DNA from: a bacterium
GTDB lineage: Bacteria; Patescibacteriota; CPR2; UBA1875; JAJYID01
Assembly: GCA_021796415.1 (NCBI GenBank)
Contig: JAJYJC010000001.1
Location: 18,742 to 82,741 of the forward strand
Direction: 5' to 3'
DNA: 64,000 bases
The notes below the pieces were generated by a model. The model saw nothing but the letters and a program-made list of their open reading frames with translations, was not told the origin of the DNA and ran no database searches. Below, in pieces: positions 1-62,708 of this stretch (positions within the stretch are counted from its first letter, which is position 1; each line of letters begins with the position of its first letter). A program made the position numbers and the translations under genes.

Positions 1-358
1 CGATGCCGCTTTCGATAACCCTTCCGACATCGTAGTTTTGGAGCACATAGCTAAGTCCGGAGACGTGGTCTGCATCCGGATGGGAAACAAAAACGAGATC
101 GATCTTTTTCCTGTAAAACGGCAGGTTTTTGCCAAGGCATTCCAAGACCTTCTTGTCCGGACCGCCGTCAACCAAAGCGCTTTTGCCGTCGGGGAATTCA
201 AGCAAAGCCGCATCCCCTTGCCCGACATCGCAAAAAATAACTTGAAGCGCATGGTGTTCCGGAGTAAAAACATTTACCCAGATAAATAAGAAAGCGACGC
301 TCAGCACAACGAGAACGGGAAAAGAAAATATCTTTTTTGCTTTGCCTTCAGTTTGCAA
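1..358 (-). CDS. ComEC C-terminal metallo-beta-lactamase domain protein. Partial: it runs off the window start. It is a separate ORF or a frameshifted continuation of the ComEC competence domain gene.
   Basis: The minus-strand reading frame stays open from position 358 to position 1. It encodes ...QVIFCDVGQGDAALLEFPDGKSALVDGG...VFVSHPDADHVSGL, a Lactamase_B start that includes the HxHxDH motif. A TTG lies 4 nt after AGGAGG and overlaps the upstream ORF's stop, in a +1 frame relative to that ORF. Confidence 0.55.
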   Translation of the reverse strand, partial: MQTEGKAKKIFSFPVLVVLSVAFLFIWVNVFTPEHHALQVIFCDVGQGDAALLEFPDGKSALVDGGPDKKVLECLGKNLPFYRKKIDLVFVSHPDADHVSGLSYVLQNYDVGRVIESGI

Positions 359-1862: not shown

Positions 1863-1906
1863 ATTTTCATGACTTTCACATAGTGACTGTTTATGCTTAA
1901 TGCATT

Positions 1907-2028
1907 GTCATTCCCGCGCAGGCGGGAATCCATTCAAGATAAGGGGCTCCTCTACTTTCCACTAATGTAGTGACGGCCCGCCTGCCTGTCCGTCCGGCAG
2001 GCGGGCCGGACGGACAGGTCGGAATGAC
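1907..2028. repeat. Hairpin-repeat cluster: one type-A unit plus a long GAATGAC-terminated palindrome
   Basis: gtcattcccgcgcaggcgggaatcc sits at 1907-1931. A second element at 1972-2028 has the stem cctgtccgtccggc/gccggacggacagg and ends in ggaatgac. Confidence 0.7.
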
Positions 2029-2058
2029 AAAATGGGATTTGTGTCGTACAATAATACT

Positions 2059-3006
2059 ATGGCCAGCGTAAATGACCTTGTCAGCGACTTTTTGGAATAT
2101 TGCGAGATAGAGAAAAATCACTCGGATCTGACGATTCGAAACTACGAACACTATCTCGGCAGGTTTTTGGATTTTGCCGAAAAAAACAGAAGTACCGATC
2201 TGCGCCCCGAACAAATCACTCTGGATATGGTGCGAAAATACCGCCTGCACTTAAACAGGCTGACAAATGGTATGGGGCAGCATCTGGCGAAAATCACCCA
2301 AAACTATCATATAATCGCACTTCGCGCCTTCCTGAAATATCTGGCTAAAAGAGACATTAAGTCATTATCGGCTGAGAAGCTGGAACTTGGCGACGCAAAT
2401 AGAAAGCAAGTTGAGTTTCTGGAAATAACCGAGGTGCAGGATCTTCTCTCGGCGCCCGAAAAATATCCGTCAAAAAAAGAGATTATTACTCTTCGCGATG
2501 CGGCAATTTTTGAGACCCTTTTCTCAACCGGCCTTCGCATCAGCGAGCTGGTCGGTTTAAACCGCGAGCAAATTAATCTGGAAAGGGGCGAGTTTAATGT
2601 CAGGGGCAAAGGCGGCAAAAACAGAGTTGTTTTTCTATCAGACCAAGCGTCAAAAAAAATTAAGGAGTATCTAGCCAAGAGAGCTGACAATGCCAAGCCT
2701 CTTTTTATACATTATTCGGGAGTGAAAGAAGATTTGGATGACGGCGAATACATGCGCCTCACTCCAAGGAGCATCCAGAGAATTGTTTCCCGTTATGCGC
2801 ATCTTTGCGGCATCACGAAAAAAGTGACGCCGCATATGCTTCGCCACTCTTTTGCCACCGATTTATTAATAAACGGCGCCGACATCAGAAGCGTCCAAGC
2901 AATGCTCGGCCATGCTTCCATCACCACAACCCAGATTTATACCCACTTAACTAATACTCGACTCCGCGAAGTCCACAAAAATTTTCACAATAAAAAGAAA
3001 AACTGA
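2059..3006 (+). CDS. Tyrosine site-specific recombinase, XerC/XerD family
   Basis: C-terminal catalytic motifs are present (HMLRHSFATDLLINGADIRSVQAMLGHASITTTQIYTHL). There is an N-terminal SAM-like domain. The ORF is open from 2032, but the ATG at 2059 is the likely start. Confidence 0.85.
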   Translation: MASVNDLVSDFLEYCEIEKNHSDLTIRNYEHYLGRFLDFAEKNRSTDLRPEQITLDMVRKYRLHLNRLTNGMGQHLAKITQNYHIIALRAFLKYLAKRDIKSLSAEKLELGDANRKQVEFLEITEVQDLLSAPEKYPSKKEIITLRDAAIFETLFSTGLRISELVGLNREQINLERGEFNVRGKGGKNRVVFLSDQASKKIKEYLAKRADNAKPLFIHYSGVKEDLDDGEYMRLTPRSIQRIVSRYAHLCGITKKVTPHMLRHSFATDLLINGADIRSVQAMLGHASITTTQIYTHLTNTRLREVHKNFHNKKKN

Positions 3007-3009
3007 TGC

Positions 3010-3052
3010 ACTTGCCAAGGGACTTCCCTAGGCAAGTGCTTTTGAACTTTAA
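3010..3052 (+). terminator. Rho-independent terminator hairpin downstream of the recombinase gene
   Basis: gcacttgccaaggga-c-ttccctaggcaagtgc forms a near-perfect stem, followed by TTTTG. Confidence 0.5.
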
Positions 3053-3087
3053 AATCTCAGTGTGAGAGAGAAGATTATTGAAGGTTC

Positions 3088-3190
3088 TCGGCCACGCCTC
3101 CATCATTATAATCTAAATCTACACCCATCTGACCAATAAGCAGGTTTCGTGAAGTTCACAAAAGTTTCTATAACAAAGGCAATAGAACTT
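3088..3190 (+). pseudogene. Degenerate duplicate of the recombinase gene 3' end
   Basis: Positions 3088-3190 align with 2905-3000 (LGHASI..QIYTHLTN..VHK). The copy carries stop codons and a frame shift. Confidence 0.5.
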
Positions 3191-3270
3191 AGATTTCCAA
3201 ATTAGTTTCCTTTTGAAAACCATCCCATTCTTATTTGATGTCCTGTGATTTTGCGATGAACTTTAAGTTG

Positions 3271-4308
3271 TTATTGTTGCCACCTAAGAAATAGACCAAC
3301 ATTCTCTATGAGCGTATCAGTGCCACTAGTCATTGTGAGTTGGCCAGCTCCACCACGGTCTATAGAAGATGATTGTGGGTAAAAAGCATAATTCGGTGTT
3401 ATTGCAGGAGAATTGTCTAATGTTACAACACCTATGCATGTTCCATTTCCATTATCGTCAACAACTTTCAGGGAAGTCGTGCTTCCCGGCCTATATGTAA
3501 GGATAAATTGGAAAGGGCCTGTTCCGGTGCTGGTATCAATGTAAGTTGATGGTAGTGCCGGAGGCAAAGCACTGCCAAGAGCCATTTGCTCCAGATAAAT
3601 TTTTTTATCTTCTATATCTAGGCCGATTGCATTATTATTGCTATCACCTTCAGCTAAACCGGTTTGGAAACTGCCGCTTACGGGATTTATGTAACCGCTG
3701 AAAGTGTAGGCCGAGGCACCGGGGGGCAGATAAAATCCGATGCCTTGATAATCCTTAGATAAATTAATAAATTGATTGCTGTAACCTGGAACATTAGTTA
3801 GAGCCACATTATTATCGTTAAAAGATATTGAATTACCCTGAGTTAATGGGATGTCGCTCTGGCTGCCTTCTATCCTGCGGGCGATATCACCCGCCTCTCC
3901 CTGGCTGTAATAACAATACACATATTCTCCGAGTCTAGTTGTGGAGCAATTACGCGAGGGATCCCAAGGCAGAGGCTGAGAGTCAGTGCCACCAACTTTA
4001 CCTACTTTAAACACCTGAAAATCGTAGGTTGCAGAAGACGTAGAGTCTACGGGATTATTAGATTTTTTACCTGCTGTATCTATGCTGTTTGCAATATAAT
4101 TATTGACCCTTTCCATACCTGCTTCTGCAGCCATATACGCCTGAGTGGAACTATCAATCTCACTTGATTGCCTGATCTCGGTAATAATGACCGCCGTCAC
4201 CGCGCTAACGCACAAAAAGTACAGGCCTATGGCAAGCATTGTCCATAAAAGCACCGTGCCTTTTTGATTTTTCATGACCTTATTGTTTATCATTTTAAGC
4301 TTTCTCAT
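3271..4308 (-). CDS. Putative pilus-assembly protein (PilX_N-like N-terminus), secreted or membrane-anchored
   Basis: The N-terminus (KGTVLLWTMLAIGLYFLCVSAV) resembles PilX_N. It is the first gene of a minor-pilin cluster. Confidence 0.35.
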   Translation of the reverse strand: MRKLKMINNKVMKNQKGTVLLWTMLAIGLYFLCVSAVTAVIITEIRQSSEIDSSTQAYMAAEAGMERVNNYIANSIDTAGKKSNNPVDSTSSATYDFQVFKVGKVGGTDSQPLPWDPSRNCSTTRLGEYVYCYYSQGEAGDIARRIEGSQSDIPLTQGNSISFNDNNVALTNVPGYSNQFINLSKDYQGIGFYLPPGASAYTFSGYINPVSGSFQTGLAEGDSNNNAIGLDIEDKKIYLEQMALGSALPPALPSTYIDTSTGTGPFQFILTYRPGSTTSLKVVDDNGNGTCIGVVTLDNSPAITPNYAFYPQSSSIDRGGAGQLTMTSGTDTLIENVGLFLRWQQ

Positions 4309-4361
4309 ATTTTACTCCGCCTTTCATGCAACATCACACTATCTTCATACTTTGTCCGGCT

Positions 4362-4410
4362 GGATTCCCGCCGGAGTTTATGCTGAACTCTGATTCAGTG
4401 CGGGAATGAC
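4362..4410. repeat. Hairpin repeat (GGATTC...GAATGAC family)
   Basis: ggattcccgccggagtttatgctgaactctgattcagtgcgggaatgac. Confidence 0.7.
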
Positions 4411-4441
4411 AGTGTGAATGGTTTTTAACATTTTACATCCC

Positions 4442-4987
4442 TTAAAGCTCATTGTGCATTATCAGATAATCTTCAAAGTCCATTTTCTCACCCGTGCCGG
4501 CTGAAGTTTCCCCGTTTGGAAGATTTGTTTCTTCTATTTGCATCTGATATTTCAAGGTTTTCGGATAAGTTGCTACAACTCCGCGAGAGACATTAAAACT
4601 GTCGACTTTTACTTGGTCTGTTGTCAAATTGTACGCACCTGAATCCATTTTCAGTTGGTTGCTTTGGCATTCGAAATTTATGGTTGTGCTATCCATCATG
4701 GTTAAGCTTAGCGTATCACCGGTCGAGCAAAGGTCATCTCCTGTCGATAAATTTCCAGAGCCTGTAACACTTACAGCTTTAGCTTCTCTGGTGATTCTTG
4801 AGAAGGTTTCCGAGGCAAATCTGCCTTCATCCAGCATATTGGAGGTCTGCCGGTACTGCGACTGAAGCTTTTGGATGGTTATAAAAAATCCGACAGTCAA
4901 GGTTAGAACTAGAGTAAAAAGCGCCATACTGACAACCAGTTCGACAAGAGTCATCCCCTTGTTATTTAATTTAAATATCTTCATCAT
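4442..4987 (-). CDS. Type IV minor pilin / pseudopilin (prepilin-type N-terminal domain)
   Basis: The N-terminus is KGMTLVELVVSMALFTLVL (a class III signal). Start and stop overlap the neighbouring genes. Confidence 0.6.
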   Translation of the reverse strand: MMKIFKLNNKGMTLVELVVSMALFTLVLTLTVGFFITIQKLQSQYRQTSNMLDEGRFASETFSRITREAKAVSVTGSGNLSTGDDLCSTGDTLSLTMMDSTTINFECQSNQLKMDSGAYNLTTDQVKVDSFNVSRGVVATYPKTLKYQMQIEETNLPNGETSAGTGEKMDFEDYLIMHNEL

Positions 4988-5547
4988 TGTTTTGACATTA
5001 TGGTTGATACGCTTGTGGTAACATCACTGTTCGGACCGGTGACCGTGACCGTGATGTAATAATATCGGTCAGTACAATCATAGTCATTCGGGCTTATCGG
5101 GGTTTGGCCGCAATCAGAGCCTGTTTGAAAATTAGAGCCAGTGATAATAGGGTCGGAACTCAGAAGACTGCTTAAATTTTGAATGGTTATATTTCGCGAG
5201 AAATTGTCGAAATTTGAAATTTTGTTCGGAGTGCCGGTAGTCTGAATGGTTTCGTCGTTCGTGGATTCAGTGTCTCCTTTGATAACAAAATTTGTAGTCC
5301 CAGAAGCAACGCTAGAGCTAATCGATGAAAAGCTGCAACCGATATCGCGCTGATGCCTGGCTATTTCAATCCCTTCTTCCGCCAAAGTATTGGCTTTGGT
5401 GATGTCTGATGAGTTGTAAACCAGATTTTTAGTGGCAACGGTCAGGCTCATCATAGCTGCCAAGGATATGCCAATAATCCCAAAGGCAACGACAGTTTCG
5501 ACAAGTGTTTGTCCTTTTTTGCTCTTTACTATGAAAAATTTCTTCAT
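4984..5547 (-). CDS. Type IV minor pilin (prepilin-type N-terminal domain)
   Basis: The N-terminus is KGQTLVETVVAFGIIGISLAA. Confidence 0.6.
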   Translation of the reverse strand: MKKFFIVKSKKGQTLVETVVAFGIIGISLAAMMSLTVATKNLVYNSSDITKANTLAEEGIEIARHQRDIGCSFSSISSSVASGTTNFVIKGDTESTNDETIQTTGTPNKISNFDNFSRNITIQNLSSLLSSDPIITGSNFQTGSDCGQTPISPNDYDCTDRYYYITVTVTGPNSDVTTSVSTIMSKQ

Positions 5548-6233
5548 TATTTCAACTCCGCACTGCCCGCCGGGCTTATTACAACTTGGTGCGACGAACC
5601 GCCGTTCGGATCAGCGAATGTAATAGTAACTTGGCCTAAATTAAGCGAATTGGTCGGACTCCAAATCTGAGTAGACTGATCTTTGCTCCAATCGCTTGGT
5701 GAAGACATTGCGTAAAATTTACCATATGGACTTGTGAAAAAAAGGTAAAGAGTACCAGAGATTCCATCCGATGCATTACTTGCTGTTACCTTAAGATTCT
5801 GTTTGAAGTTAACGGACGTAGAAGGATCGAGTGGCGTGGTAGTGCCTTGCGTTGGCGTTGAAGCGCCGGTGTCACAAAATGGAGTAACGCTAAGGGGTGC
5901 CGGTGTGGCGGAAGTGTCGATAGACGTCCCAAGCTGGAGTTTAATCATCTTTATAACTGTTGATCTGCCATCACAAACACCTCCGGGATCGCTAATTTTC
6001 TTGGTCGAAACCGCATCCACAAATGCCTGGCGCATCTGTGTCTGGAAGGTATTTGCCACATAATTGATGTAGTTTTCCTGCCTGGCAACCGTAAATCCGC
6101 TAAAGACCAAAATCATCAGAAAAGAAAGGATACCCATCACCACAACCATTTCAACCAGGGTAAATCCGTCCCGAGATGATATTCTTTTACTTAATCTTGA
6201 AACCCTCCGTAACATAATAAAAACCTTTATCAA
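5547..6233 (-). CDS. Type IV minor pilin (prepilin-type N-terminal domain)
   Basis: Contains DGFTLVEMVVVMGILSFLM, with the G|FTLVE cleavage/methylation motif. Confidence 0.6.
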   Translation of the reverse strand: MIKVFIMLRRVSRLSKRISSRDGFTLVEMVVVMGILSFLMILVFSGFTVARQENYINYVANTFQTQMRQAFVDAVSTKKISDPGGVCDGRSTVIKMIKLQLGTSIDTSATPAPLSVTPFCDTGASTPTQGTTTPLDPSTSVNFKQNLKVTASNASDGISGTLYLFFTSPYGKFYAMSSPSDWSKDQSTQIWSPTNSLNLGQVTITFADPNGGSSHQVVISPAGSAELK

Positions 6234-6236
6234 TTT

Positions 6237-6640
6237 GTCATTCCCGCGCAGGCGGGAATCCAGTCAGTCAATGTTATCATATAAATCTTTCCATTTGGGA
6301 TTAAAATCTTCTATAAGTTTCATCTTCCATTGTCTGTTCCACTTCTTGATTTGTTTTTCTCTTTTGATAGCCTCTTCAATGCTATTTGTTTCTTTAAAGT
6401 AAACAAGATTGTGGCATTTGTATTTTTTGGTAAAGCCTTCGATTAAATCATTTTTATGTTCATATGCTCTTTTCTTTAAATCTTTGGTAACTCCCGTGTA
6501 GAGCGTTCCGTTTCTGTCGCTGGCCATGATGTAGACATAGTAGGATTTCATTAATAATTATTTTAACTCAACTTTATACTTTATTTAAGCCTCACGGTTC
6601 TTGCTTAGCTTGACTGGATTCCCGCCTGCGCGGGAATGAC
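6237..6640 (-). mobile_element. GIY-YIG nuclease gene flanked by inverted palindromic hairpin repeats (copy 1, a REPIN-like unit)
   Basis: gtcattcccgcgcaggcgggaatcc sits at 6237-6261 and its reverse complement at 6616-6640. The entire unit is 100% identical to 10616-11019. Confidence 0.7.
6264..6551 (-). CDS. Stand-alone GIY-YIG nuclease (UPF0213/YhbQ-like), copy 1
   Basis: YYVYIMASDRNGTLYTGVT...RAYEHK...GFT is a GIY-YIG motif. The protein is 95 aa. Confidence 0.85.
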   Translation of the reverse strand: MKSYYVYIMASDRNGTLYTGVTKDLKKRAYEHKNDLIEGFTKKYKCHNLVYFKETNSIEEAIKREKQIKKWNRQWKMKLIEDFNPKWKDLYDNID

Positions 6641-6664
6641 AGAGATGAGAATAAATCATTTTCC

Positions 6665-7564
6665 TTATAAAAACATTCTACCATAAACAGCAAGAATTTG
6701 GACAAGAAAGAAAAAGCTTATAAAGGTTCCTGTCACCAGAAACGGCCCAAAAGGAATCTTTGACCCTAATTTTTTCTGGCCGCTAACTAAACTGATAGCA
6801 CCAAAAACTGCCCCCAAGATAAATCCAGCGTACAAGGCGACAATTATTCCCGGCCAGCCCAAAACAAGCCCCATAAAAGCAACAAGCTTAATGTCGCCAC
6901 CCCCCATCCATTTGCCTCCGGAAATCATCGCCAGAATATAGAAAAACCCTCCTGCGACAAGACCTGAGAGTAGATGGTCAATTAAATACTGATAATGGCC
7001 AAGCAGTGCAGTATTAACTCCCACAAATACAAGCCCCAAAACCAAAAGGGTATAAATAATTTCATTTGGAATGATCTGATGCTTTAAATCATAGACAAAA
7101 ATAGCAGCTAACCCGGCAGCAAAAACAAGCCAAAAGAGGAGGTTGAAAATACCCAACATTGACTGGATTCCCGCCTGCGCGGGAATGACAGAGGAAGGAG
7201 CGGGAATGACAGTGAGAGTAGAAGCAGAAAAATGAATAAAGAAACTACCTGCCTGCCCGGAATCCAATCCGGCACCTGATAAAAAATGAGGTCCGATGGC
7301 AGCAAACAAAAACCCCGTCGCCAGCTCCACTAACGGATATTGATCCGAGATATTTGCTTTGCAATATCTGCATTTTCCGCCCAAAACCAGCCAAGAGACC
7401 ACCGGAAAGAGATCATACCACTTAATTTCTTTTTTACATTTGGGGCAAAATGATCTGCCTCCCAAACCTCTGCCAATTTCCAAACGATAAATCAAAGCAT
7501 TCAAAAAACTGCCAATGATAAGGCCAGCTAGAAAAAATAAAGTCAAAACGATATAAAGATGCAT
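6665..7564 (-). CDS. pilD: Prepilin peptidase (A24 family) carrying an in-frame hairpin-repeat insertion
   Basis: Has an N-terminal CxxC...CxxC zinc domain (CPKCKKEIKWYDLFPVVSWLVLGGKCRYC) and GSFLNALIYRL. The segment [17 protein letters not shown] is encoded by the repeat at 7165-7210. Confidence 0.8.
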   Translation of the reverse strand: MHLYIVLTLFFLAGLIIGSFLNALIYRLEIGRGLGGRSFCPKCKKEIKWYDLFPVVSWLVLGGKCRYCKANISDQYPLVELATGFLFAAIGPHFLSGAGLDSGQAGSFFIHFSASTLTVIPAPSSVIPAQAGIQSMLGIFNLLFWLVFAAGLAAIFVYDLKHQIIPNEIIYTLLVLGLVFVGVNTALLGHYQYLIDHLLSGLVAGGFFYILAMISGGKWMGGGDIKLVAFMGLVLGWPGIIVALYAGFILGAVFGAISLVSGQKKLGSKIPFGPFLVTGTFISFFFLVQILAVYGRMFL

Positions 7565-7639
7565 GAGAATATTATAAGTACTAAAAACCCAAAATACAAA
7601 AGGGAATTTCACTTGCCAAGGGACGGACCCTTGGCAAGC

Positions 7640-8419
7640 TTAGCCGCCTAACTTTTGCAAGATATAATCCTTGAATCCCGTAACTCGCTCTATGTCGCTT
7701 GGATTCATCAGAAAAGGCTGCACATCTTTAGCAAGAGCATCAAAATCAAGCGTCTCAACCTTCGAAAAAAGCTGTTTCTTGATTTGCTTCTCGGAATATC
7801 CATGGGCTTTCTCCAGAAAAACATAGTCCGGCTCTGTTTTGCCCAATAAATAAGAAACATCATAAAAATCACGTCCCTTCTCTCGCTTTCTTTCCATGAT
7901 TGCAATAAGTTTCTGAGCCAAAATAACCGAGATGCTGTTCACTAATATTTTCCTGTAAACATCAAAGTTATTTAAAATATAAATTTCCGGCTTCACAAGC
8001 TCGCGCTTCAGCGTCGCATCAATCCGCACCAGAATCTTCTCCCCTTTCTGGCCGGATATACCATGTTTAAACAGTAAATCGGGAAACTTTATATAGCAAT
8101 GATATGCTTCTTTTTCTACGAAACGAAACTCTATCTCAAAGCCTTTAAGCTCCATCGTCTTTGCAGTTTTGTCAAGAAGTGTTTTGAAACCGTCGAAAGT
8201 AAGGCCAAAGTTGTCAAAGTCCAAATCCTCGGAAAAGCGCGAGCTGCCATACACTATTCTGATAGCTGTCCCTCCGATAAAGCTTAGCTTTTCGCTCTCA
8301 TTTTGCTGAAAAATGGAATCCAAAAGTTCATACTGCAGGTATTCGACCAAAGCAGCTTTTGGATTTTTTCCAAACACATCGCCTGGAAAATTCGTTTTAA
8401 TTTGCTCCATCGTTAGCAT
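7640..8419 (-). CDS. AbiEii-family nucleotidyltransferase toxin (type IV TA / abortive infection)
   Basis: Contains FIGGTAIRIVYGSSRFSEDLDFD, a DUF1814/AbiEii-type motif. Its start is adjacent to the stop of the upstream partner gene. Confidence 0.6.
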   Translation of the reverse strand: MLTMEQIKTNFPGDVFGKNPKAALVEYLQYELLDSIFQQNESEKLSFIGGTAIRIVYGSSRFSEDLDFDNFGLTFDGFKTLLDKTAKTMELKGFEIEFRFVEKEAYHCYIKFPDLLFKHGISGQKGEKILVRIDATLKRELVKPEIYILNNFDVYRKILVNSISVILAQKLIAIMERKREKGRDFYDVSYLLGKTEPDYVFLEKAHGYSEKQIKKQLFSKVETLDFDALAKDVQPFLMNPSDIERVTGFKDYILQKLGG

Positions 8420-9055
8420 TTATTTCTCCACCGTAATCTTTAAAATACGATCTAACTTTTTGCTGTTAAAAACTTCTGCGTACTGCATCAGTTTTTCTTT
8501 ATCGACAGCCTCACCCATGGAAAACCGGTTCAGCCTCAGCTCTTCTATATCTGCCTCGTCATGCAACTTGGCAAGATTCAAATACAAATAGTCTAAAAGC
8601 GCTTTTTCAGGTTCGGCCAAAAGATACATACCCTTGCCGTCATCTACTTTTTTGTATCCAAAAAACAAATCCTTTTTGAGATGACGATAGGCGAATAAGC
8701 CTATATCGTTTTTGAAAGTTCTAGTTGTCTTTGATGTGACAGATGTCACATTATAAACCATCTCGGGGATGATACCGTAGTGCGACAGAGCCCATTCAAG
8801 GCTGATATAGCTTGGTTGATAGATTGTAAAAGCAACGCTTTCATTACTAACTAAATCTTTTCTTGCAGTAAAAAGATATATGCCGTTTTTCAACTTGATC
8901 AACAACTCTTCATCCCTCCACAAAGACAGTTGATATGGGTAGACCCTAAGGCCTGTTTTTCTAATGTCTGCAAGAGAGAAGATTGGCTCTTTGATCTGTC
9001 GATTCATCTCGTTATATTTCATTTTATTATCACTTTCAATAATAAACTGAAACAA
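8420..9055 (-). CDS. AbiEi-like antitoxin / transcriptional regulator partner of AbiEii
   Basis: A ~210-aa protein immediately upstream of the AbiEii gene and end-to-end adjacent to it. This is the typical abiEi-abiEii architecture. Confidence 0.45.
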   Translation of the reverse strand: MFQFIIESDNKMKYNEMNRQIKEPIFSLADIRKTGLRVYPYQLSLWRDEELLIKLKNGIYLFTARKDLVSNESVAFTIYQPSYISLEWALSHYGIIPEMVYNVTSVTSKTTRTFKNDIGLFAYRHLKKDLFFGYKKVDDGKGMYLLAEPEKALLDYLYLNLAKLHDEADIEELRLNRFSMGEAVDKEKLMQYAEVFNSKKLDRILKITVEK

Positions 9056-9062
9056 TATTAAA

Positions 9063-9194
9063 TTAAAAGTTAGCTTGTGTCAAGAATTTTTTGCCTTCAA
9101 AACGGCAGGTGAGAACATTCAAAAAACTGCCGGCAGTAAGACCGAGAAAGAAAAGAAACAAAATCAAAAAGATCAGCATAAATATATTATACAT
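9063..9194 (-). pseudogene. Truncated duplicate of the pilD 5' end (43-codon fragment)
   Basis: The fragment MYNIFMLIFLILFLFFLGLTAGSFLNVLTCRF aligns with the PilD N-terminus LTLFFLAGLIIGSFLNALIYRL. The upstream hairpin ttgccaagggg...ccctttgccaa is also duplicated (7607-7640 versus 9226-9260). Confidence 0.5.
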
Positions 9195-9327
9195 TAAACC
9201 CGGGAGGACAATTTTTTTCATTCACCCATTTGCCAAGGGGCAGCCCTTTGCCAAGCTTGGCAAAAAATGACAAAAATAACATACACAAAATCAGCTTAAT
9301 GAGAGAGTTATCCCCTACATTCCTCTA

Positions 9328-9882
9328 TCACTCTTGATGGAAAATATCGCCAGCCGGAATAATACTAGTGTTAAAATTACATTTACATGTATCAGCAACA
9401 GTGCATACCCCTGTTGCTAAAAGTTTTGCCGCCGTTTCTTCCGTCACAACCCAAAGCCTATATTCGTTCGGTACCGAATACATATGCACATAACAAATAG
9501 TTCCACCGTTTTGAGCCTGGTTTGTAGGAGGGTGAGACGGATCTGGTAAATATTTATTTAGAGATTCACCGTTTTGTAACATGACATAAGCCTGCCTATC
9601 ATTGTTACTACCGGAAACCCCTTGATCAACACCAGGCGGCATACTCTGATTATCACCATAATATTTTTCTATATAAGTTTCTATACTTTTAGCGTCGTTT
9701 CTAAGCTGCGTATCTCTTGCTTGCTGCCTGGCAATAGCAATGGCCCCAATTATCAACGCGGCCAAAACAGCAATAATGGCCATTACTACAACCAATTCAA
9801 TAAGTGTAAAACCTTTTTTTGTACGAAGATTGACTCGCTTTTTAATATTTCCCATAACAACCACGGCGAGTAGCCTCGCCAT
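9328..9882 (-). CDS. Type IV pilin (major pilin-like, PilA family)
   Basis: Contains KKGFTLIELVVVMAIIAVLAALIIGAIAIARQQ, a canonical type IVa pilin N-terminus. There are C-terminal Cys residues. An alternative start lies at 9855. Confidence 0.7.
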   Translation of the reverse strand: MARLLAVVVMGNIKKRVNLRTKKGFTLIELVVVMAIIAVLAALIIGAIAIARQQARDTQLRNDAKSIETYIEKYYGDNQSMPPGVDQGVSGSNNDRQAYVMLQNGESLNKYLPDPSHPPTNQAQNGGTICYVHMYSVPNEYRLWVVTEETAAKLLATGVCTVADTCKCNFNTSIIPAGDIFHQE

Positions 9883-9947
9883 GGCTAGTTATAATGGACA
9901 TCAAAAACCTTCAAGTGAAGAATTTTTGGTAGAAACTGGCACCATCA

Positions 9948-10385
9948 TTAAGGACCCGATATAGTGCCGATGTTATAACCACCTTGACCGTTTGTATTGC
10001 AGTTCCACGGTGCGATTGTAATTGTGTAATTGTGGTTAGTGGAACTACTTACTATATTACCTCCACCACTATTGTCTTGGGTACCACCCCCGTTTCCTGT
10101 ACACGCGCTAGTCGAGAGGTTTGTTGCTGCTATGTTTAGAGTGGTGTCGGTGGTGTTGTCGCTAATCGCCGTACCTAATATGTCAGGATAATTCTTGTTA
10201 GAAGCATAATAAGCCTCCAAAGCAGTTTGAACGGTCCTAGCATTGGACCTGTTGGCAGTTTCAGTAGCTGTGTGTCTGGCGATTGTAATAGCTCCGATGA
10301 TAAGAACCGCTAGAATAGCGATAATTGCCATAACGACAACTAACTCAATAAGGGTAAAACCTTGTTTTTCTTTTAGCTTTCTCAT
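9948..10385 (-). CDS. Type IV pilin (PilA family)
   Basis: Contains KQGFTLIELVVVMAIIAILAVLIIGAITIARH...TALEAYY. Confidence 0.75.
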   Translation of the reverse strand: MRKLKEKQGFTLIELVVVMAIIAILAVLIIGAITIARHTATETANRSNARTVQTALEAYYASNKNYPDILGTAISDNTTDTTLNIAATNLSTSACTGNGGGTQDNSGGGNIVSSSTNHNYTITIAPWNCNTNGQGGYNIGTISGP

Positions 10386-10449
10386 ATTTCACCTCCTTTC
10401 TAATTTTCTTTTTATGTTGATATTTAACCAATATCCTTAAGGTGTGTCA

Positions 10450-10475
10450 ATGATATTCTGTCAGCAGAATATCAT
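10450..10475. promoter_or_regulatory. 11-bp perfect inverted repeat (candidate operator) in the pilin upstream region
   Basis: atgatattctg-tcag-cagaatatcat. It lies about 65 nt upstream of the pilin start and has no T-tract on either side. Confidence 0.3.
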
Positions 10476-10615
10476 CAAATTCTAATCTCTAAATGCTAAA
10501 TGCTAAACAAATCATAAATTTTTAAATTCAAATTATTTAAACACTAATTCGGGATTTATCAAGTATTGCGCCAAGTATTTTCATTGCAACTCATTTTCAA
10601 AAATCATTATCCCCT

Positions 10616-11019
10616 GTCATTCCCGCGCAGGCGGGAATCCAGTCAGTCAATGTTATCATATAAATCTTTCCATTTGGGATTAAAATCTTCTATAAGTTTC
10701 ATCTTCCATTGTCTGTTCCACTTCTTGATTTGTTTTTCTCTTTTGATAGCCTCTTCAATGCTATTTGTTTCTTTAAAGTAAACAAGATTGTGGCATTTGT
10801 ATTTTTTGGTAAAGCCTTCGATTAAATCATTTTTATGTTCATATGCTCTTTTCTTTAAATCTTTGGTAACTCCCGTGTAGAGCGTTCCGTTTCTGTCGCT
10901 GGCCATGATGTAGACATAGTAGGATTTCATTAATAATTATTTTAACTCAACTTTATACTTTATTTAAGCCTCACGGTTCTTGCTTAGCTTGACTGCATTC
11001 CCGCCTGCGCGGGAATGAC
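10616..11019 (-). mobile_element. GIY-YIG nuclease gene flanked by inverted hairpin repeats (copy 2, identical to copy 1)
   Basis: Identical to 6237-6640 except for one mismatch in the right hairpin (gcattc versus ggattc). The flanking sequences differ. Confidence 0.7.
10643..10930 (-). CDS. Stand-alone GIY-YIG nuclease, copy 2
   Basis: The protein is 100% identical to copy 1. Confidence 0.85.
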   Translation of the reverse strand: MKSYYVYIMASDRNGTLYTGVTKDLKKRAYEHKNDLIEGFTKKYKCHNLVYFKETNSIEEAIKREKQIKKWNRQWKMKLIEDFNPKWKDLYDNID

Positions 11020-11133
11020 AGAGAGAGGCAGTTCTTCTTTTTGGATCATATGCCTTTTTGTTTATAATTTCTGTCATTTGATATTGTTTAGTGTTTCGGA
11101 TTTCGTGCTTCGGATTTCGAATTTATTAAAGTA

Positions 11134-12342: not shown

Positions 12343-12354
12343 GATTCCTTTTTT

Positions 12355-12440
12355 GTCATTCCGGACTTGATCCGGAATCAAGTTTTATTTATATGGATCC
12401 TGAATCCCCGCCTGCCGGACGGGCAGGAAGTTCAGGATAA
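12355..12440. repeat. Composite hairpin repeat (two units) at the pilC 5' end
   Basis: gtcattccggacttgatccggaatc followed by ggatcctgaatccccgcctgccggacgggcaggaagttcagga. The same two-unit architecture occurs at 52683-52770 and 38107-38153. Confidence 0.7.
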
Positions 12441-12452
12441 CAATGGAAAAAA

Positions 12453-13529: not shown

Positions 13530-13585
13530 GCACCCTCCTATTTATTAATATTCTAATGTTTTTTTAAAAATTTGCAAAGGCATAA

Positions 13586-15367: not shown

Positions 15368-15369
15368 GA

Positions 15370-15615
15370 TTAAAATCCAGCAAAGGGGTTATCCCTGCCT
15401 ATACCATCCATGGGCACACTTCCATAATCCTTTCTTTCCTGCAGCTTTTGGATAGCAGTATTATCAATATTGGAGTTAAACTCTGTAGTTTGGGTGGTGC
15501 TGCCGGCAGTTTTTACTTGTCCGCCATTACCGCCAACCCCCCCCATAATGAAATAAATACATGCCGCAATAACAATAATACAAACAGCTAGCACTATGAT
15601 GTCCTTTTTCTTCAT
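15370..15615 (-). CDS. Small membrane protein within the pilus operon (function unknown)
   Basis: One N-terminal TM helix. Its coding sequence is end-to-end with pilB and pilO. Confidence 0.3.
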   Translation of the reverse strand: MKKKDIIVLAVCIIVIAACIYFIMGGVGGNGGQVKTAGSTTQTTEFNSNIDNTAIQKLQERKDYGSVPMDGIGRDNPFAGF

Positions 15616-18057: not shown

Positions 18058-18137
18058 GTCATTCTGGCTTGTCCAGAATCAATTTTTAAGATTTAAGGAA
18101 AAGGATTCCGGCCTCCTAGATGTCGCCAGAATGACGA
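18058..18137. repeat. Composite hairpin repeat (two units)
   Basis: gtcattctggcttgtccagaatc followed by ggattccggcctcctagatgtcgccagaatgac. Confidence 0.7.
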
Positions 18138-22846: not shown

Positions 22847-24013
22847 ATGGGCCTATCTATCGGAATAGTCGGTCTGCCGAATGTCGGCAAAAGTACGCTT
22901 TTCAACGCCTTGACAAAAAACCAAGCGGAAGCTTCAAATTACCCCTTTTGCACCATCGATCCAAATGTAGGCATTGTGGTGGTCCCGGACGAACGGTTGC
23001 AAAAGCTGGCTGAAGTTATTCCAACCCAGAAAATCGTCCCGGCAATCGTTGAATTTATCGATATTGCGGGAATAGTGAAGGGCGCAGCAGAAGGCGAAGG
23101 CCTCGGCAATAAATTTCTGGCCAATATACGCGAGTGTGACGCGATTGCTGAAGTCGTACGTGTATTTTCAGATACAAATATCACTCATGTGGCCGGAAAA
23201 GTTGATCCAACCTCCGACATGGAAACCATTAAAATGGAACTGGTGCTTTCCGATCTCGAAACAGTGGGGAAAAGGGCAGCCAAGCTGGCTAAAGAAGTAA
23301 AAGGCGATCCAAAACTCAAAGAAGCTTTGGATTTAGTCCAAAAAATTCAGACCGAACTTGAGAAAGGAAGGGCAGCCCGAGAATTGGATTTGTCTGAAAA
23401 AGATATCGAGAAAATTAAAGACTTAAACCTGCTTACTTTAAAGCCGCATATTTATATTTTCAATGTCGATGAAGAAAATCTTACCTCTCATGTCATTCCC
23501 GCGCAGGCGGGAATCCAGGACATTATTGGTATAGATTCCCGCCTGCGCGGGAATGACAAAGATGACAGAAATGACAAAAATAGTGGAGAAAATAAAGTCG
23601 CTCAAAATGACAACAACCATGTCTTAATTTCAGCAAAGATTGAATCTGAACTAAACGAGCTTTCCGAGGAAGAAAAGAAAGAATATCTTTCAGAGCTGGG
23701 ACAATCTGAGACGGGATTAAACCGGCTAATCAAGATAGGATATGATCTGCTTGGCCTCCAAACCTACTTCACAGCCGGAGAAAAGGAGATCAAGGCATGG
23801 ACCATTCATAAAGGGGACAAAGCGCCGCAAGCCGCCGGCGTCATCCATACCGACTTTGAAAAAGGGTTCATCAAAGCCGAGACTGTTTCCTGGCAGGATC
23901 TAGTTGAACATAAAGGCTGGGCAGGCGCTAAAGCGGCTGGCAAAGTCCGCCTCGAGGGCAAAGATTACACCGTCCAAGACGGCGATGTGATGGTGTTTAA
24001 GTTTAATGTTTAG
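22847..24013 (+). CDS. ychF: Ribosome-binding ATPase YchF (Obg-like GTPase) carrying an in-frame hairpin-repeat insertion
   Basis: Contains [18 protein letters not shown] (G1) and a TGS domain at the C-terminus. The roughly 45-aa insert [10 protein letters not shown]...[11 protein letters not shown] is encoded by repeats at 23492-23556. Confidence 0.9.
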
Positions 24014-24044
24014 GGAGATCGTCAATCCACTACTTTTTTCGCTC

Positions 24045-24400
24045 GTCATTCCCGCGCAGGCGGGAATCCAGCCTAAATAATTTCATTATACAAATCTCTC
24101 CATTCAGGATTAGATTTTTCGATTAGTCGCAGCTTCCATCTTCTTTCCCATTTCTTAAGCCGTTTTTCTCGTTTTATTGCTGCTTCAGCTGTCTGATGTT
24201 CTTCGAAGTAAACTAAAAGGTGCGTTTGATATTTATTACTGAATCCCCCAACAAGATCATTTTTGTGTTGGTAAACTCTTTTAATTAGCTCAGAGGTAAC
24301 CCCAATATAAAGAGTCCCATTTTTCTTACAGGCCAAAATATAAACCCAAAATTTTTTCATATCTCACAACTTTCTGGATTCCCGCTTGCGCGGGAATGAC
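24045..24400 (-). mobile_element. GIY-YIG nuclease gene flanked by inverted hairpin repeats (copy 3)
   Basis: gtcattcccgcgcaggcgggaatcc sits at 24045-24069 and ggattcccgcttgcgcgggaatgac at 24376-24400. Confidence 0.7.
24073..24360 (-). CDS. Stand-alone GIY-YIG nuclease, copy 3 (divergent paralog)
   Basis: Contains FWVYILACKKNGTLYIGVT...RVYQHK. Confidence 0.85.
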   Translation of the reverse strand: MKKFWVYILACKKNGTLYIGVTSELIKRVYQHKNDLVGGFSNKYQTHLLVYFEEHQTAEAAIKREKRLKKWERRWKLRLIEKSNPEWRDLYNEII

Positions 24401-33023: not shown

Positions 33024-33042
33024 TCTAAGCTCCCGAGTGGCG

Positions 33043-33385
33043 TCATTCTGGCTTGGCCAGAATCTATCTAAGAATTTCTCCATACAAATCCTTAAATTCA
33101 GGATTTTCCTTTCTGATTAAATCCAATTTGTCTCTTCTGTTCATGTCTTTAATTTGTTTCTCTCGAACAATAGCTTTTATAGCTGTATCAAATACCTCAA
33201 AATAAACTAATTTATGAATATGATACCTTTTCGTAAATCCTTCAACCAGCTCATTTTTATGCTGGTAAACCCTTTTTCTGAGGTCATTAGCTATACCGGC
33301 GTAGAGCGTTGGTCTTTCGTTTGTCATAATATATGTGAAGTATTGTTTATTCATAGGCTTTGATTCTGGCCAAGCCAGAATGACG
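33043..33385 (-). mobile_element. GIY-YIG nuclease unit flanked by type-B hairpins (copy 5), inserted between recA and recX
   Basis: gtcattctggcttggccagaatc sits at 33043-33065 and gattctggccaagccagaatgac at 33363-33385. Confidence 0.7.
33064..33354 (-). CDS. Stand-alone GIY-YIG nuclease, copy 5 (divergent paralog)
   Basis: Contains YFTYIMTNERPTLYAGIAN...RVYQHK. Confidence 0.85.
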   Translation of the reverse strand: MNKQYFTYIMTNERPTLYAGIANDLRKRVYQHKNELVEGFTKRYHIHKLVYFEVFDTAIKAIVREKQIKDMNRRDKLDLIRKENPEFKDLYGEILR

Positions 33386-38106: not shown

Positions 38107-38153
38107 GGATTCCGGATCCCCGCCTGCCGGACGGGCAGGAAGTCCGGAATGAC
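38107..38153. repeat. Hairpin repeat (long unit)
   Basis: ggattccggatccccgcctgccggacgggcaggaagtccggaatgac. Confidence 0.7.
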
Positions 38154-47678: not shown

Positions 47679-48287
47679 TTATTTTAGGATTTTGAGCTCG
47701 GCTTTTAGGGTTTTTAGGTCAAAAACGGCAAAACTGGCGCGGCCGAACTGGCCGGCTACTTCTCCGGGATTAATCAATTGGGTTTTGCCAATCTGTTCCT
47801 CCCAAGGAGTGTGAGTGTGGCCGTAGAATACGGTGTCGTATCGTTCGGACTCGGCTAATTCTTTAGCCTTTCGATTGTTATGGACATAGGCAATTTTACG
47901 CTTTTCAAGCACGACTTCGCCGAAATCCGGGGCAAAAACCACATTCTCCGGAAAGAGTCCACCACCCCTGTCATTCCCGCCCTCCTTTGTCATTCCGAGC
48001 GACTTCGCGGAGCAACAAGCCGAGGAATCCCTTTCGCCTTTATCAGTACCATCTGGGCAGGCGGATAAACTCCGGCGGGAATCCAGTCCATTTTTCAATT
48101 CAAAATCTAAGTTCCCCAAGTTTAAGTAAAGAATTTCAAATGACTTTGCCACTTCGCTCACTGTGTCTAAATCGCCAATATCCCCGCAGCAAAAGCCAAT
48201 TTTAACTCTTTCAGCTTTAATAATCTCCGCCGCTTCCCGCCAGCGCTCTAAGTTGTCATGCACATCGCTAAAAACCGCTATTTTCAT
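47679..48287 (-). CDS. YfcE-like metallophosphoesterase carrying an in-frame composite hairpin-repeat insertion
   Basis: Contains MKIAVFSDVHDN...CCGDIGD...GHTHTP. A roughly 45-aa insert LDSRRSLSA...GMTKEGGNDRGGG is encoded by repeats at 47970-48089. Confidence 0.75.
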   Translation of the reverse strand: MKIAVFSDVHDNLERWREAAEIIKAERVKIGFCCGDIGDLDTVSEVAKSFEILYLNLGNLDFELKNGLDSRRSLSACPDGTDKGERDSSACCSAKSLGMTKEGGNDRGGGLFPENVVFAPDFGEVVLEKRKIAYVHNNRKAKELAESERYDTVFYGHTHTPWEEQIGKTQLINPGEVAGQFGRASFAVFDLKTLKAELKILK

Positions 48288-48310: not shown

Positions 48311-48376
48311 GTCATTCTGAACTCGATTCAGAATCTATTAAATAAGGCCTGGATTCCGGATCAAGTCCGGAATGAC
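48311..48376. repeat. Composite hairpin repeat (two units)
   Basis: gtcattctgaactcgattcagaatc followed by ggattccggatcaagtccggaatgac. Confidence 0.7.
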
Positions 48377-50658: not shown

Positions 50659-50884
50659 GTCATTTCGACTCCGCCTTCGGAACGGATAAACTCCGTGGAG
50701 AAATCCATTTTTCCTTTAGCAACTTGCCAACTTATAATCTTAGTAACTCTTTCAAGGGATTCTTCGGCTCCGCTCAGAATGACAATATTTTTATTTTATT
50801 AATGTTCTTTTTTTGTCACTCGGATCCTTCTTGTCCGTCATCCTGGCTTGGCCAGGATCTATTTCTACAGGATTCTGGACAAGC
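50659..50884. repeat. Hairpin-repeat cluster in the rpsO-pnp intergenic region
   Basis: gtcatttcgactccgccttcgg...cgctcagaatgac runs to 50783. gtcatcctggcttggccaggatc and ggattctggacaagccagaatgac cover 50806-50884. Confidence 0.65.
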
Positions 50885-50935
50885 CAGAATGACTCTCAAT
50901 ACTATATACTCAATACCCAATACTGAAACTTGGAG

Positions 50936-52415: not shown

Positions 52416-52476
52416 GTCATTCCGGTTTGTCCGGATTCAAAAAAGATCAATACGATTCTGGTCAAGCCGGAATGAC
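52416..52476. repeat. Composite hairpin repeat
   Basis: gtcattccggtttgtccggattc followed by gattctggtcaagccggaatgac. Confidence 0.7.
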
Positions 52477-52682: not shown

Positions 52683-52770
52683 GTCATTCCGGACTTGATC
52701 CGGAATCCAGATAATTTTATATAGATTCTGAATCCCCGCCTGCCGGACGGGCAGGAAGTTCAGAATGACA
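52683..52770. repeat. Composite hairpin repeat (same two-unit architecture as 12355-12440)
   Basis: gtcattccggacttgatccggaatcc followed by gattctgaatccccgcctgccggacgggcaggaagttcagaatgac. Confidence 0.7.
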
Positions 52771-56617: not shown

Positions 56618-57694
56618 ATGGGTCCTATGGAAATGCTGAGTATTCTGGCAAAGAAGTCAAATAACCTTTTTCAGTCCGGCGTTTGGGCTGATTTTCAGGC
56701 AGATCTGAAGCGCAAATCATTTTTAATCAAAAGTGATCATGTGGAAGCCTTGGTCATCAAATATCCTTTGATTGGGCGAAATTTATTTTCAAAAATAGAT
56801 TCCCGCCGGAGTTTATCCGCCCGAAGCTCTGCGAAGGAGGACGGGAATGACAAAGGAAGGGGAGATAAGTATTATTTTTATTCCCCTCGAGGACCGATTG
56901 CTGATTCAAAAGTGAAGCTGAAGGACTTGAAAGTATTCTTCAGAAAAGTCGAGTCTCTTGCCAAAGAAGAGAATGCTGTATTTTACCGAATAGAGCCTTA
57001 TTCTTTAGGTCAGGTTGATATTTATAAGTTCGGTTTTAGAAAAATCGCAAAACACGCACCGCTATCAGCACAATCCTCACCCGAAAATACTCTCGTTTTA
57101 GATATCACAAAACCTGAAGAAAAAATTCTAGCCGAAATGAAGCCGAAGTGGAGATACAACATCAACTTGGCGTCAAGAAAGGACGTCAAAGTGCGCCAGG
57201 GGAAAAGTCTAAATGATATCAAGATTTTCTATAACCTCACTTTGGAAATGGAAAAAAGGGGAGGGTACAAGGGGCATGAGTTTGAATACTACAAAAAGAT
57301 GTTTGAGGTTTTAAGCAGCAAAAATGTGCTGAAACTTTATATCGCAGAATACGAAGGTGAGCCTTTGGCGGCGATTTTGGTTTCTTTCTACGGCCAAGTC
57401 GCAACATACTTGCACGGCGCCTCGGGGAATGAAAAGAGGGAACTGATGCCAACTTACGCGCTTCAGTGGGCGGCTATCCAAGACGCAAAGAAAAAGGGCT
57501 GCAAGATTTATGATTTTTGGGGCATAGCGCCAGATGGCGCAAAAAATCATTCGTGGGCAGGCGTCACCAGATTTAAAAAGGGTTTTGGTGGAGAGGCCCT
57601 TCATTTTAGCGGCGCATACGATATGGCATTTGACAAAAATTATTACCGCCTGCTTTCTGCGGCAAACAGAGTTAGAAAGGTTTTGAAAAGATAA
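56618..57694 (+). CDS. FemAB-family peptidoglycan aminoacyltransferase-like protein carrying an in-frame hairpin-repeat insertion
   Basis: Has a FemAB/GNAT-fold C-terminal half (LYIAEYEGEPLAAILVSFYGQVATYLHGAS...WAGVTRFKKGFGG). The insert IDSRRSLSARSSAKEDGNDK is encoded by the repeat at 56798-56850. Confidence 0.6.
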   Translation: MGPMEMLSILAKKSNNLFQSGVWADFQADLKRKSFLIKSDHVEALVIKYPLIGRNLFSKIDSRRSLSARSSAKEDGNDKGRGDKYYFYSPRGPIADSKVKLKDLKVFFRKVESLAKEENAVFYRIEPYSLGQVDIYKFGFRKIAKHAPLSAQSSPENTLVLDITKPEEKILAEMKPKWRYNINLASRKDVKVRQGKSLNDIKIFYNLTLEMEKRGGYKGHEFEYYKKMFEVLSSKNVLKLYIAEYEGEPLAAILVSFYGQVATYLHGASGNEKRELMPTYALQWAAIQDAKKKGCKIYDFWGIAPDGAKNHSWAGVTRFKKGFGGEALHFSGAYDMAFDKNYYRLLSAANRVRKVLKR

Positions 57695-62147: not shown

Positions 62148-62219
62148 TGTCATTCTGGGGACGAAGGACTCCAGAATCTAAAGCGCATATATCCTTGATT
62201 CTGGACAAGCCAGAATGAC
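62148..62219. repeat. Composite hairpin repeat
   Basis: gtcattctggggacgaaggactccagaatc followed by gattctggacaagccagaatgac. Confidence 0.7.
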
Positions 62220-62685: not shown

Positions 62686-62708
62686 GATTCTGGCCAAGCC
62701 AGAATGAC
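62686..62708. repeat. Hairpin repeat between groES and groEL
   Basis: gattctggccaagccagaatgac. Confidence 0.7.

Follow-up and report, generated by a model that had tools for sequence, protein, structure and literature searches.

Probable Ssn-family GIY-YIG nuclease genes within paired hairpins in a patescibacterial genome segment

We analysed a stretch of 64,000 nucleotides of contig JAJYJC010000001.1 (positions 18,742 to 82,741) from the genome assembly GCA_021796415.1 of a bacterium of the Patescibacteria; this stretch, at its full length, is called the window below. The window carries five genes for small proteins with a GIY-YIG nuclease domain, and we consider it highly probable (roughly 85%) that they encode five single-stranded DNA (ssDNA) nucleases of the Ssn family, each lying inside its own pair of SRM/NTS hairpins. 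The Ssn family and these hairpins were defined by Chenal et al. (2025, Nat Commun 16:2388, PMC11893778), where NTS stands for the Neisseria Transformation Sequence, CGTCATTCCCGCGMAVGCGGGAATCYRG, which extends the dRS3 repeat and gives it an orientation. We observed membership in this family, the architecture of the units, covariation within the hairpins, duplication of whole units and turnover at the sites they occupy. The core discovery, a GIY-YIG nuclease with flanking hairpins together with the analogy to RAYT/REP systems, is already published, and the window does not define a new class. An earlier note on this DNA, made from the sequence alone, had put forward a GIY-YIG-based REPIN-like system as undescribed, which the Ssn/SRM publication contradicts (PMC11893778).

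The nuclease genes and their flanking hairpins

The five stand-alone open reading frames (ORFs), found where the earlier note had placed them, encode 95–96 residues, lie on the minus strand within 30 kb (6264-6551, 10643-10930, 24073-24360, 28038-28325 and 33064-33354), and all match Pfam PF01541 (GIY-YIG) with E-values of 1e-12 to 1e-16 over residues 3-77, which is their sole significant domain. A relaxed tblastn search of the window found no sixth copy. The five genes and their hairpins form the following units, named by order along the window.

6237..6645 (minus): ssn unit 1, between pilD and a pseudopilin gene; SRM-A 6237-6263 (+), ssn1 6264-6551 (-), SRM-A 6614-6640 (-), 5 shared nucleotides
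10616..11024 (minus): ssn unit 2, between pilC and a pseudopilin gene; upstream SRM 10996-11019, with C to G at the base right after the palindrome
24045..24400 (minus): ssn unit 3; ORF 24073-24360; SRM-A on both sides, the copy at 24377-24400 with the loop variant GCAA
28037..28439 (minus): ssn unit 4; ORF 28038-28325; downstream SRM of subtype D at 28037-28061, upstream SRM of subtype B at 28362-28439 with a 53-nucleotide loop insert
33042..33384 (minus): ssn unit 5, between recA and recX; ORF 33064-33354; subtype C on both sides

Units 1 and 2 encode the same protein, Ssn1, to which Ssn3 and Ssn5 are 59% and 53% identical. Ssn relatives number in the thousands at 55–75% identity and come from very different phyla. 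The reference member, ssnA of Neisseria meningitidis (NMV_0044/NMB0047), encodes a single-domain GIY-YIG protein of 94 residues (CDD cd10448), and homologues have been assigned to the family at E < 1e-10 to Neisseria SsnA (PMC11893778). The window protein falls within this threshold. With Ssn1 as the query, tblastn located one place per genome in N. gonorrhoeae (E 1e-26), and BLASTP against the 94-residue ORF in one of these genomes (L118:613-897) gave 55% identity (E 2e-37). This ORF carries Y6, Y17 and E64, the positions changed by mutation in the published work (PMC11893778), and sits among NTS copies; its length, these residues and the NTS flanks suggest that it is the gonococcal SsnA orthologue. 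The orthologue was taken from N. gonorrhoeae chromosomes that are labelled as plasmids in PLSDB, and the entry NZ_CP119140.1 (L118), a chromosome of 2.17 Mb filed as 'plasmid', is a labelling error. Y17 and E64 (N. meningitidis numbering) are invariant in the alignment of the paralogues, while Y6 is present in Ssn1, Ssn3 and Ssn5, and in Ssn4 solely if translation begins at an ATT upstream of its ATG. In Ssn4 (28038) the canonical ATG is replaced by this ATT, the homology extends on to 28346, and the ORF runs through its downstream hairpin; unit 4 is possibly decaying.

Other assignments of these proteins were considered. Pfam and NCBIfam models identified no HUH/Y1 domain of the IS200/IS605 type in the Ssn proteins, only GIY-YIG. 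The group I intron endonuclease model TIGR01453 scored 19.8–21.2 bits against a cut-off of 56, and a GIY-YIG homing endonuclease of the I-TevI type was rejected on this sub-threshold score and on the length of 95 residues without a second domain. Membership in UPF0213/YhbQ was also rejected: solved UPF0213 proteins match weakly only (1zg2, E 2.7e-4; 1ywl, E 6.4e-4), which would fit a family apart from YhbQ-like proteins and leaves the likeness to E. coli YhbQ drawn in the earlier note a loose one.

In gene orientation, the upstream element reads GTCATTC-stem-loop-stem-GAATC(CAG), and its reverse complement follows a few bases past the stop codon. A hairpin and its inverted partner thus bracket each gene, with the GTCATTC ends facing outward at all five; only the copy at 28038, with its 53-nucleotide loop insert and ATT, is atypical. 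The exact pattern GTCATTCC-N6-20-GGAATC occurs 13 times in the window against 0.01 expected. A strict structural scan, which required GTCAT[TC]C, 6 or more stem pairs counted from ATTC and then a C, gave 37 matches, about 34 of them distinct, against 0.69 in random sequence, and about 8 degenerate copies lie beyond it, so the total is about 35–40 in 64 kb and the more than 35 hairpins counted earlier stand. A looser scan allowing one mismatch in GTCATT was uninformative (93 matches against 52 expected) and was superseded by the strict one. No Rfam family reached its gathering score anywhere in the window.

Four main subtypes can be distinguished among the hairpins. All retain GTC, the outer stem ATTC/GAAT and the C that follows it, while the inner stem and the loop vary.

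Subtype A: inner stem and loop CCCGCG-CAGG-CGGG
Subtype B: inner stem and loop CGGA-CTTGA-TCCG
Subtype C: inner stem and loop TGGC-TTG-GCCA
Subtype D: inner stem and loop TGAA-CTTGA-TTCA

All four fold as DNA hairpins with stems of 8 bp (-5.6 to -8.9 kcal/mol, z -2.9 to -5.4). Subtype A follows the NTS consensus closely, with 28 of 28 positions at 24044-24071 and 27 of 28, the first C being a T, in most other copies. The published degenerate SRM motif has 10 matches in the window, all of subtype A, against 0.21 expected. That the paralogues differ in their hairpin subtype, as had been proposed, is correct for the subtypes as such; it does not extend to the genes at 6264, 10643 and 24073, which share subtype A with Ssn1 and Ssn3 being 59% identical.

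We compared the window with other genomes using 80 fetched genomic loci and the 4 distinct window units, 84 loci in all, from CPR (the Candidate Phyla Radiation), Omnitrophota, Nitrospirota, Planctomycetota, alpha-, beta-, gamma- and deltaproteobacteria, Cyanobacteria, Chloroflexota, Ignavibacteria and Verrucomicrobiota. An outward-facing hairpin was found on both sides of the gene in 44 of the 84, so flanking hairpins are a feature of these GIY-YIG genes elsewhere too. The median spacing was 18 nucleotides from hairpin to ATG and 6 nucleotides from stop codon to hairpin, in agreement with published figures. Among Ssn homologues across bacteria, at least one NTS or degenerate SRM flanks the gene in 71%, and both sides are flanked in 42% (PMC11893778). 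Across 34 distinct flanking hairpins of 24 nucleotides, 99.3% of stem cells were paired, and double-sided changes occupied 20 cells against 3.8 in shuffles, a value reached by 0 of 500 shuffles; the outer four pairs are preset by the search pattern, and the signal comes from the inner four. The hairpin stem is under selection and is kept by compensatory change. The two hairpins of one gene also resemble each other more than hairpins of different loci do (normalised edit distance 0.13 against 0.25, permutation p<1e-4).

Duplication and exchange of the units

One sign of copying comes from units 1 and 2. Positions 6237-6640 and 10616-11019 are identical at 403 of 404 nucleotides, slightly short of the complete identity reported at first, and at 408 of 409 when AGAGA, the 5 shared nucleotides past the right end (to 6645 and 11024), is included. 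The flanks do differ as reported: over 300 nucleotides they are 28–30% identical, which is random, so no larger duplicated block contains the two units and a segmental duplication does not account for them. The sole differing base lies at 6617 and 10996, the C directly 3' of the palindrome in the hairpin upstream of the gene. This C is the nucleotide most critical for binding by SsnA (PMC11893778), and by analogy the C to G change probably makes the upstream hairpin of unit 2 a dead site. Paralogous units in other genomes (L046/L076, L008/L016 and L112/L115) are likewise bounded by hairpins and set in unrelated flanks, with 75–91% nucleotide identity. The stretch from SRM to SRM is therefore a duplicating module, here and in other genomes.

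Turnover of the sites is seen in relatives of the window. In a related species (RecA 92%, LexA 89% and PilC 65% identical to the window), the site between recA and recX (L112) holds a Ssn1-like gene, 85% identical to Ssn1 and 53% to Ssn5, with subtype A hairpins, where the window has Ssn5 with subtype C; different cassettes thus occupy one orthologous site. The same species carries a ssn unit with subtype A downstream of pilC (L085), the site of unit 2. A strain 98.7% identical over pilB-pilT-pilC (L083) has neither ssn nor SRM after the pilC stop codon, and a 23S_rRNA_IVP (PF05635) gene stands at L083:4242-4622 in place of unit 2. Taken together with the gene-less doublets described below, these comparisons of sequences indicate that units are copied and exchanged between sites, which supports mobility indirectly.

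The biochemistry of the characterised family members suggests how this might happen. SsnA binds its hairpin as ssDNA only and cuts one strand a few nucleotides upstream of it, being inactive on double-stranded DNA and RNA; four Ssn homologues showed the same ssDNA-only, strand-specific cleavage with partly distinct specificities (PMC11893778). Cutting needs the 5' GTC and binding needs the 3' C, and activity is lost when the stem sequence is altered with the structure kept (PMC11893778). In N. meningitidis, SsnA lowers transformation by NTS-bearing DNA (PMC11893778). A literature search found no follow-up work on SsnA. If the window proteins behave alike, each protein of 95 residues would recognise its own flanking hairpin subtype only in ssDNA, such as incoming transforming DNA or intermediates of replication and repair. 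For recognition, GTC would have to precede the stem at its 5' side and the C to follow it, and that strand alone would be nicked a few nucleotides 5' of GTCATTC. With outward-facing hairpins, each strand of a unit would then be cleavable at a single site, located at its 5' boundary. As a whole, the stretch from SRM to SRM behaves like a selfish or domesticated cassette that duplicates within genomes, swaps with other ssn lineages at the same site, and leaves behind gene-less doublets and solo hairpins, both between genes and in frame within them. We speculate that ssDNA cleavage at the hairpins could stimulate the recombination or repair that copies or swaps the cassettes. To our knowledge, GIY-YIG enzymes act hydrolytically, with no known covalent intermediate or strand-transfer activity, so copying would most likely proceed via host recombination or repair and not by strand transfer of the transposase type, and RAYT-like cutting and joining by the nuclease alone is unlikely.

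Several results weigh against reading the units as nuclease-hairpin cassettes that move. Neither a target-site duplication nor any direct repeat flanks units 1 and 2. Protein distance and hairpin distance were uncorrelated over the 44 loci (Mantel r 0.06, p 0.23), which, set against the likeness within each pair, leaves the proposed co-evolution of nuclease and hairpin weakly supported. The published SRM motif does not match subtypes B, C and D, although they keep GTC, ATTC..GAAT and the C, and the cognate pairing of B, C and D with Ssn4 and Ssn5 is suggested by adjacency; the same finding means that the published search motif under-counts divergent hairpin subtypes. Occupation of the unit 2 site at only 65% PilC identity argues for long residence over recent arrival. 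The comparison of sites recommended by the earlier note did show unit 2 to be absent from the 98.7%-identical strain, but no clean empty site was found: the pilin region downstream in that strain is only 84% identical, which indicates block or allelic replacement. Searching with the flanking genes (proteins that start at ATG) recovered just this strain, at 100% identity, and no empty sites.

The near-identity of units 1 and 2 could also result from gene conversion or homologous recombination between long-resident paralogous units, without a new insertion, a minority possibility that deserves to be taken seriously. The old unit at the unit 2 site in the related species speaks for it, recA is encoded in the window, and the identity ends at the hairpins, where homology between units would end too. 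However, the identity goes 5 nucleotides beyond the hairpin on one side, and other pairs of paralogous units, in the same or other genomes, are just 59–91% identical, so homogenisation is not general. A metagenome scan for the pilD site of unit 1 returned distant PilD homologues only, with all near-full-length matches at 30–41% identity. The earlier interpretation of recent transposition or copying, as opposed to segmental duplication, therefore holds as far as the missing larger block is concerned; transposition is plausible, and gene conversion would give the same picture.

It is unlikely that the units are autonomous REPIN/RAYT-like transposons in which the GIY-YIG protein itself, as the transposase, excises and inserts hairpin-bounded DNA. 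Such an element would be expected to give near-identical units in two places whose flanks are unrelated, inverted doublets that lack a gene, solo copies (about 35–40 elements in 64 kb), hairpins in frame in genes and unit-bounded paralogy in other genomes, all of which are seen, and Chenal et al. raised the same analogy as a hypothesis (PMC11893778). Against it stand the hydrolytic chemistry of a protein that is not of the HUH/Y1 type, and the two identical copies, which show neither a target-site duplication nor a conserved target sequence. The role demonstrated in Neisseria is the restriction of incoming ssDNA in transformation, and the occupation of the same sites in a related species fits vertical residence with cassette exchange better. 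A classical insertion sequence was rejected as well, on the missing target-site duplication at the identical units and the lack of a transposase domain.

Still less probable is that another enzyme, of the IS110/Piv type, a tyrosine recombinase or a RAYT encoded elsewhere, spreads the hairpins while ssn rides along or makes use of the sites. A phage recombinase targets dRS3 in Neisseria (cited in PMC11893778), 19% of SRM-rich genomes have no ssn homologue (PMC11893778), and in the window a gene for a Xer-like tyrosine recombinase (2032-3006) lies about 100 nucleotides from a solo SRM. No HUH/Y1 or IS110 transposase was found among the 34 window ORFs scanned with Pfam, a subset of all ORFs; the tight spacing (medians of 18 and 6 nucleotides), an orientation that is conserved and a link between ssn and hairpin that extends across bacteria point to a direct functional tie, and binding and cleavage by Ssn have been shown in vitro (PMC11893778). 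We regard as negligible the chance that misassembly of the metagenome-assembled genome produced the duplicated unit: short-read assemblies do break at these repeats, and each of the contigs L001, L002 and L119 terminates within a unit or at its edge, but the window has four distinct junctions, an independent contig from another sample (ERZ27233565 k141_1126428, L001/L119) runs from within unit 2 into unit 1 with the 4.1 kb of unique sequence between them at 100% identity, which confirms two of the four junctions (the left of unit 2 and the right of unit 1), and a contig of a second assembly (L002) confirms the other junction of unit 2.

Returning to the Ssn cassettes, a bolder version can be put forward only tentatively: the SRM-ssn-SRM units might be currently active mobile cassettes, of which orthogonal pairs (A, C and B/D) coexist, copy themselves to or displace one another at hairpin-marked sites, shed doublets and seed in-frame hairpins in essential genes. 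If true, genomes would directly attest to the mobility which the Ssn paper offers only as a hypothesis, and the cassettes would be a GIY-YIG-based counterpart of REPIN/RAYT populations. What the window adds to the published system is the patescibacterial host, five paralogues, the subtypes B, C and D, gene-less doublets, the replacement of a cassette between recA and recX, the absence of a unit from a 98.7%-identical strain and in-frame hairpins in housekeeping genes. Its remaining value, a modest one, lies in comparative material on whether NTS-ssn-NTS is or was mobile and on how the hairpins multiply: the near-identical pair, the replacement at an orthologous site, the presence or absence between strains and the heterotypic doublets with the end types of unit 4. 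Several paralogue and hairpin subtypes are gathered there in one small CPR genome, near comEC, type IV pilus genes and recA.

Gene-less hairpins and gene context

Outside the units, hairpins occur as inverted doublets without a gene and as solo copies. All seven gene-less doublets have the order plus then minus, as around the ssn genes, and both D/B heterotypic doublets (48311 and 52683) carry the two end subtypes of unit 4. Any likeness between the doublet spacers and the 3' ends of ssn genes, judged by eye, was too weak to claim.

18058..18135: gene-less inverted doublet, subtype C or variant
23492..23557: gene-less inverted SRM-A doublet, plus then minus, GTCATTC ends outward, in frame inside ychF
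48311..48376: heterotypic doublet, subtype D (+) and subtype B (-), same end-type pair as unit 4
50837..50893: gene-less inverted doublet, subtype C
52416..52476: degenerate inverted doublet, B/C-like
52683..52769: heterotypic doublet, subtype B (+) and long-loop D (-), mirroring the doublet at 48311
62149..62219: gene-less inverted doublet, subtype C or variant
1907..1930 (plus): solo SRM-A, between comEC and the Xer-like recombinase gene
7166..7210 (minus): solo SRM-A after a half-SRM, in frame inside pilD, translated
12355..12379 (plus): solo SRM of subtype B, just upstream of pilC
38108..38153 (minus): solo SRM of subtype B with a hairpin nested in its loop
38373..38438 (plus): SRM-A with two upstream half-copies, in frame inside the uracil-DNA glycosylase gene
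47970..48083 (plus): split SRM-A whose loop contains another, nested SRM-like element, inside a Metallophos ORF
56798..56851 (minus): long-loop SRM-A variant, inside a FemAB-family ORF
62686..62708 (minus): solo SRM of subtype C
22697-22719, 27505-27527, 43179-43221 and 61829-61851: further solo copies of subtype C

Roughly a fifth of all hairpins are placed in frame within conserved genes, at 7166-7210 (pilD), 23492-23557 (ychF) and 38373-38438 (uracil-DNA glycosylase), and also at 27505-27527, 47970-48083, 56118-56138 and 56798-56851. They are translated as peptide inserts such as VIPAQAGIQ or LDSRLRGND and leave the ORF unbroken. The insert in PilD comprises about 40 residues and is absent from 6 homologues. 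In YchF the segment holding the whole doublet has no aligned counterpart in solved YchF structures, and in the uracil-DNA glycosylase LDSRLRGND.. lies within an insert of about 33 residues that homologues or solved structures lack. As read from the window ORFs only, the frame is also kept in the Metallophos, FemAB, TsaD and FtsJ-like methyltransferase ORFs. Hairpins have thus been inserted in frame in at least three housekeeping genes.

Three further features of the hairpins were noticed. Many hairpins of subtype A have a half-copy (GTCATTCCCGC) in front of them, together with a C/T-rich spacer of 8–10 nucleotides (for example CCTCCTTT), as at 7190-7210, 38373-38414, 23558-23575 and 47970-47988, and in the related species at L112:2933-2952. 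The 5' flanks at the expected Ssn cut position are pyrimidine-rich in general, and hairpins are nested in the loops of other hairpins at 38108-38153, 52724-52769 and 47970-48083. Half-copies, pyrimidine-rich flanks and nested hairpins may be footprints of the copying mechanism.

The genes of the window include those for ComEC (348-1862), the Xer-like recombinase (2032-3006), pseudopilins, PilD, an AbiEii toxin, PilC, PilT, PilB and PilM and, further along, LexA, RecA, RecX and uracil-DNA glycosylase. The closest named relatives of the window PilC belong to Patescibacteria. The ssn units sit among genes of natural transformation and recombination (348-17874 and 32421-38921), which is suggestive given the role of SsnA in transformation; it is a correlation in one window and may be a coincidence. 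The gene of the AbiEii-family toxin (type IV toxin-antitoxin, PF08843; 7640-8419) lies in the pilin cluster between pilD and the pseudopilins, next to an unannotated ORF of 211 residues (8420-9055). A second copy of the 23S_rRNA_IVP gene is found in the window at 43738-44121, and a PDDEXK_3 gene adjoining recA (34479-34880) is absent from the related species (L112); both kinds of gene may be further small mobile or exchangeable cassettes. Near 56 kb the sign of the GC skew flips from negative to positive, and gene orientation flips between tsaD (55392-56561, minus) and the FemAB-family gene (56618-57694, plus), so the switch at about 56000-56700 may mark a replication origin or terminus.

Relation to known systems

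The closest match is the Ssn/SRM system itself. The window shares with it a single-domain GIY-YIG protein of 94–96 residues, 55% identical to the gonococcal orthologue and with the catalytic Y, Y and E kept, a common hairpin consensus (GTC + ATTCCCGCG..CGCGGGAAT + CYRG) and a gene placed between hairpins. Hundreds of solo copies per genome have been published, and the density in the window is about 35–40 per 64 kb. The host differs, Patescibacteria not being mentioned in the paper (PMC11893778), as do the five paralogues within 30 kb and the subtypes B, C and D, whose altered inner stems (CCGGA, CTGGC and CTGAA) escape the published motif. In-frame copies inside genes make up about one fifth here, whereas 2% of NTS lie inside genes in N. 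meningitidis (PMC11893778). The hairpins face uniformly outward here, whereas the gonococcal locus is more mosaic.

The REP/REPIN-like architecture recognised in the earlier note is borne out, with a GIY-YIG enzyme tied to the hairpins. As in REPIN/RAYT populations, one genome holds several subtypes of a short hairpin repeat, present singly or in inverted doublets, and a single small enzyme gene is flanked by repeats, its product presumably acting on ssDNA hairpins. NTS-ssnA-NTS has been described as built like an insertion sequence, and a parallel with IS200/IS605, REP/BIME and domesticated transposases was offered as a hypothesis (PMC11893778). The enzymes differ, a hydrolytic GIY-YIG nuclease here and an HUH/Y1 enzyme with a covalent intermediate there, as do the conserved 5' tails (GTC against the GTAG type). 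The dRS3 repeats and NIMEs of Neisseria have the core ATTCCC-N8-GGGAAT, which equals the stem of subtype A; inverted pairs of them bracket short spacers, and they mark the edges of variable regions, as the hairpins do at the pilC junction of the window. They have been described in Neisseria only, historically without an enzyme, and are now subsumed under NTS/SRM.

The GIY-YIG homing endonucleases, I-TevI and the Seg proteins, share the catalytic domain and a selfish behaviour with the Ssn units but have a C-terminal DNA-binding domain and cut double-stranded DNA. The Rickettsia palindromic elements, reportedly described by Ogata and colleagues in Science in 2000, are said to be palindromic repeats that likewise sit in frame in conserved genes without destroying the ORF, though at about 100–150 bp. 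Rickettsia is also among the SRM-rich genera (PMC11893778).

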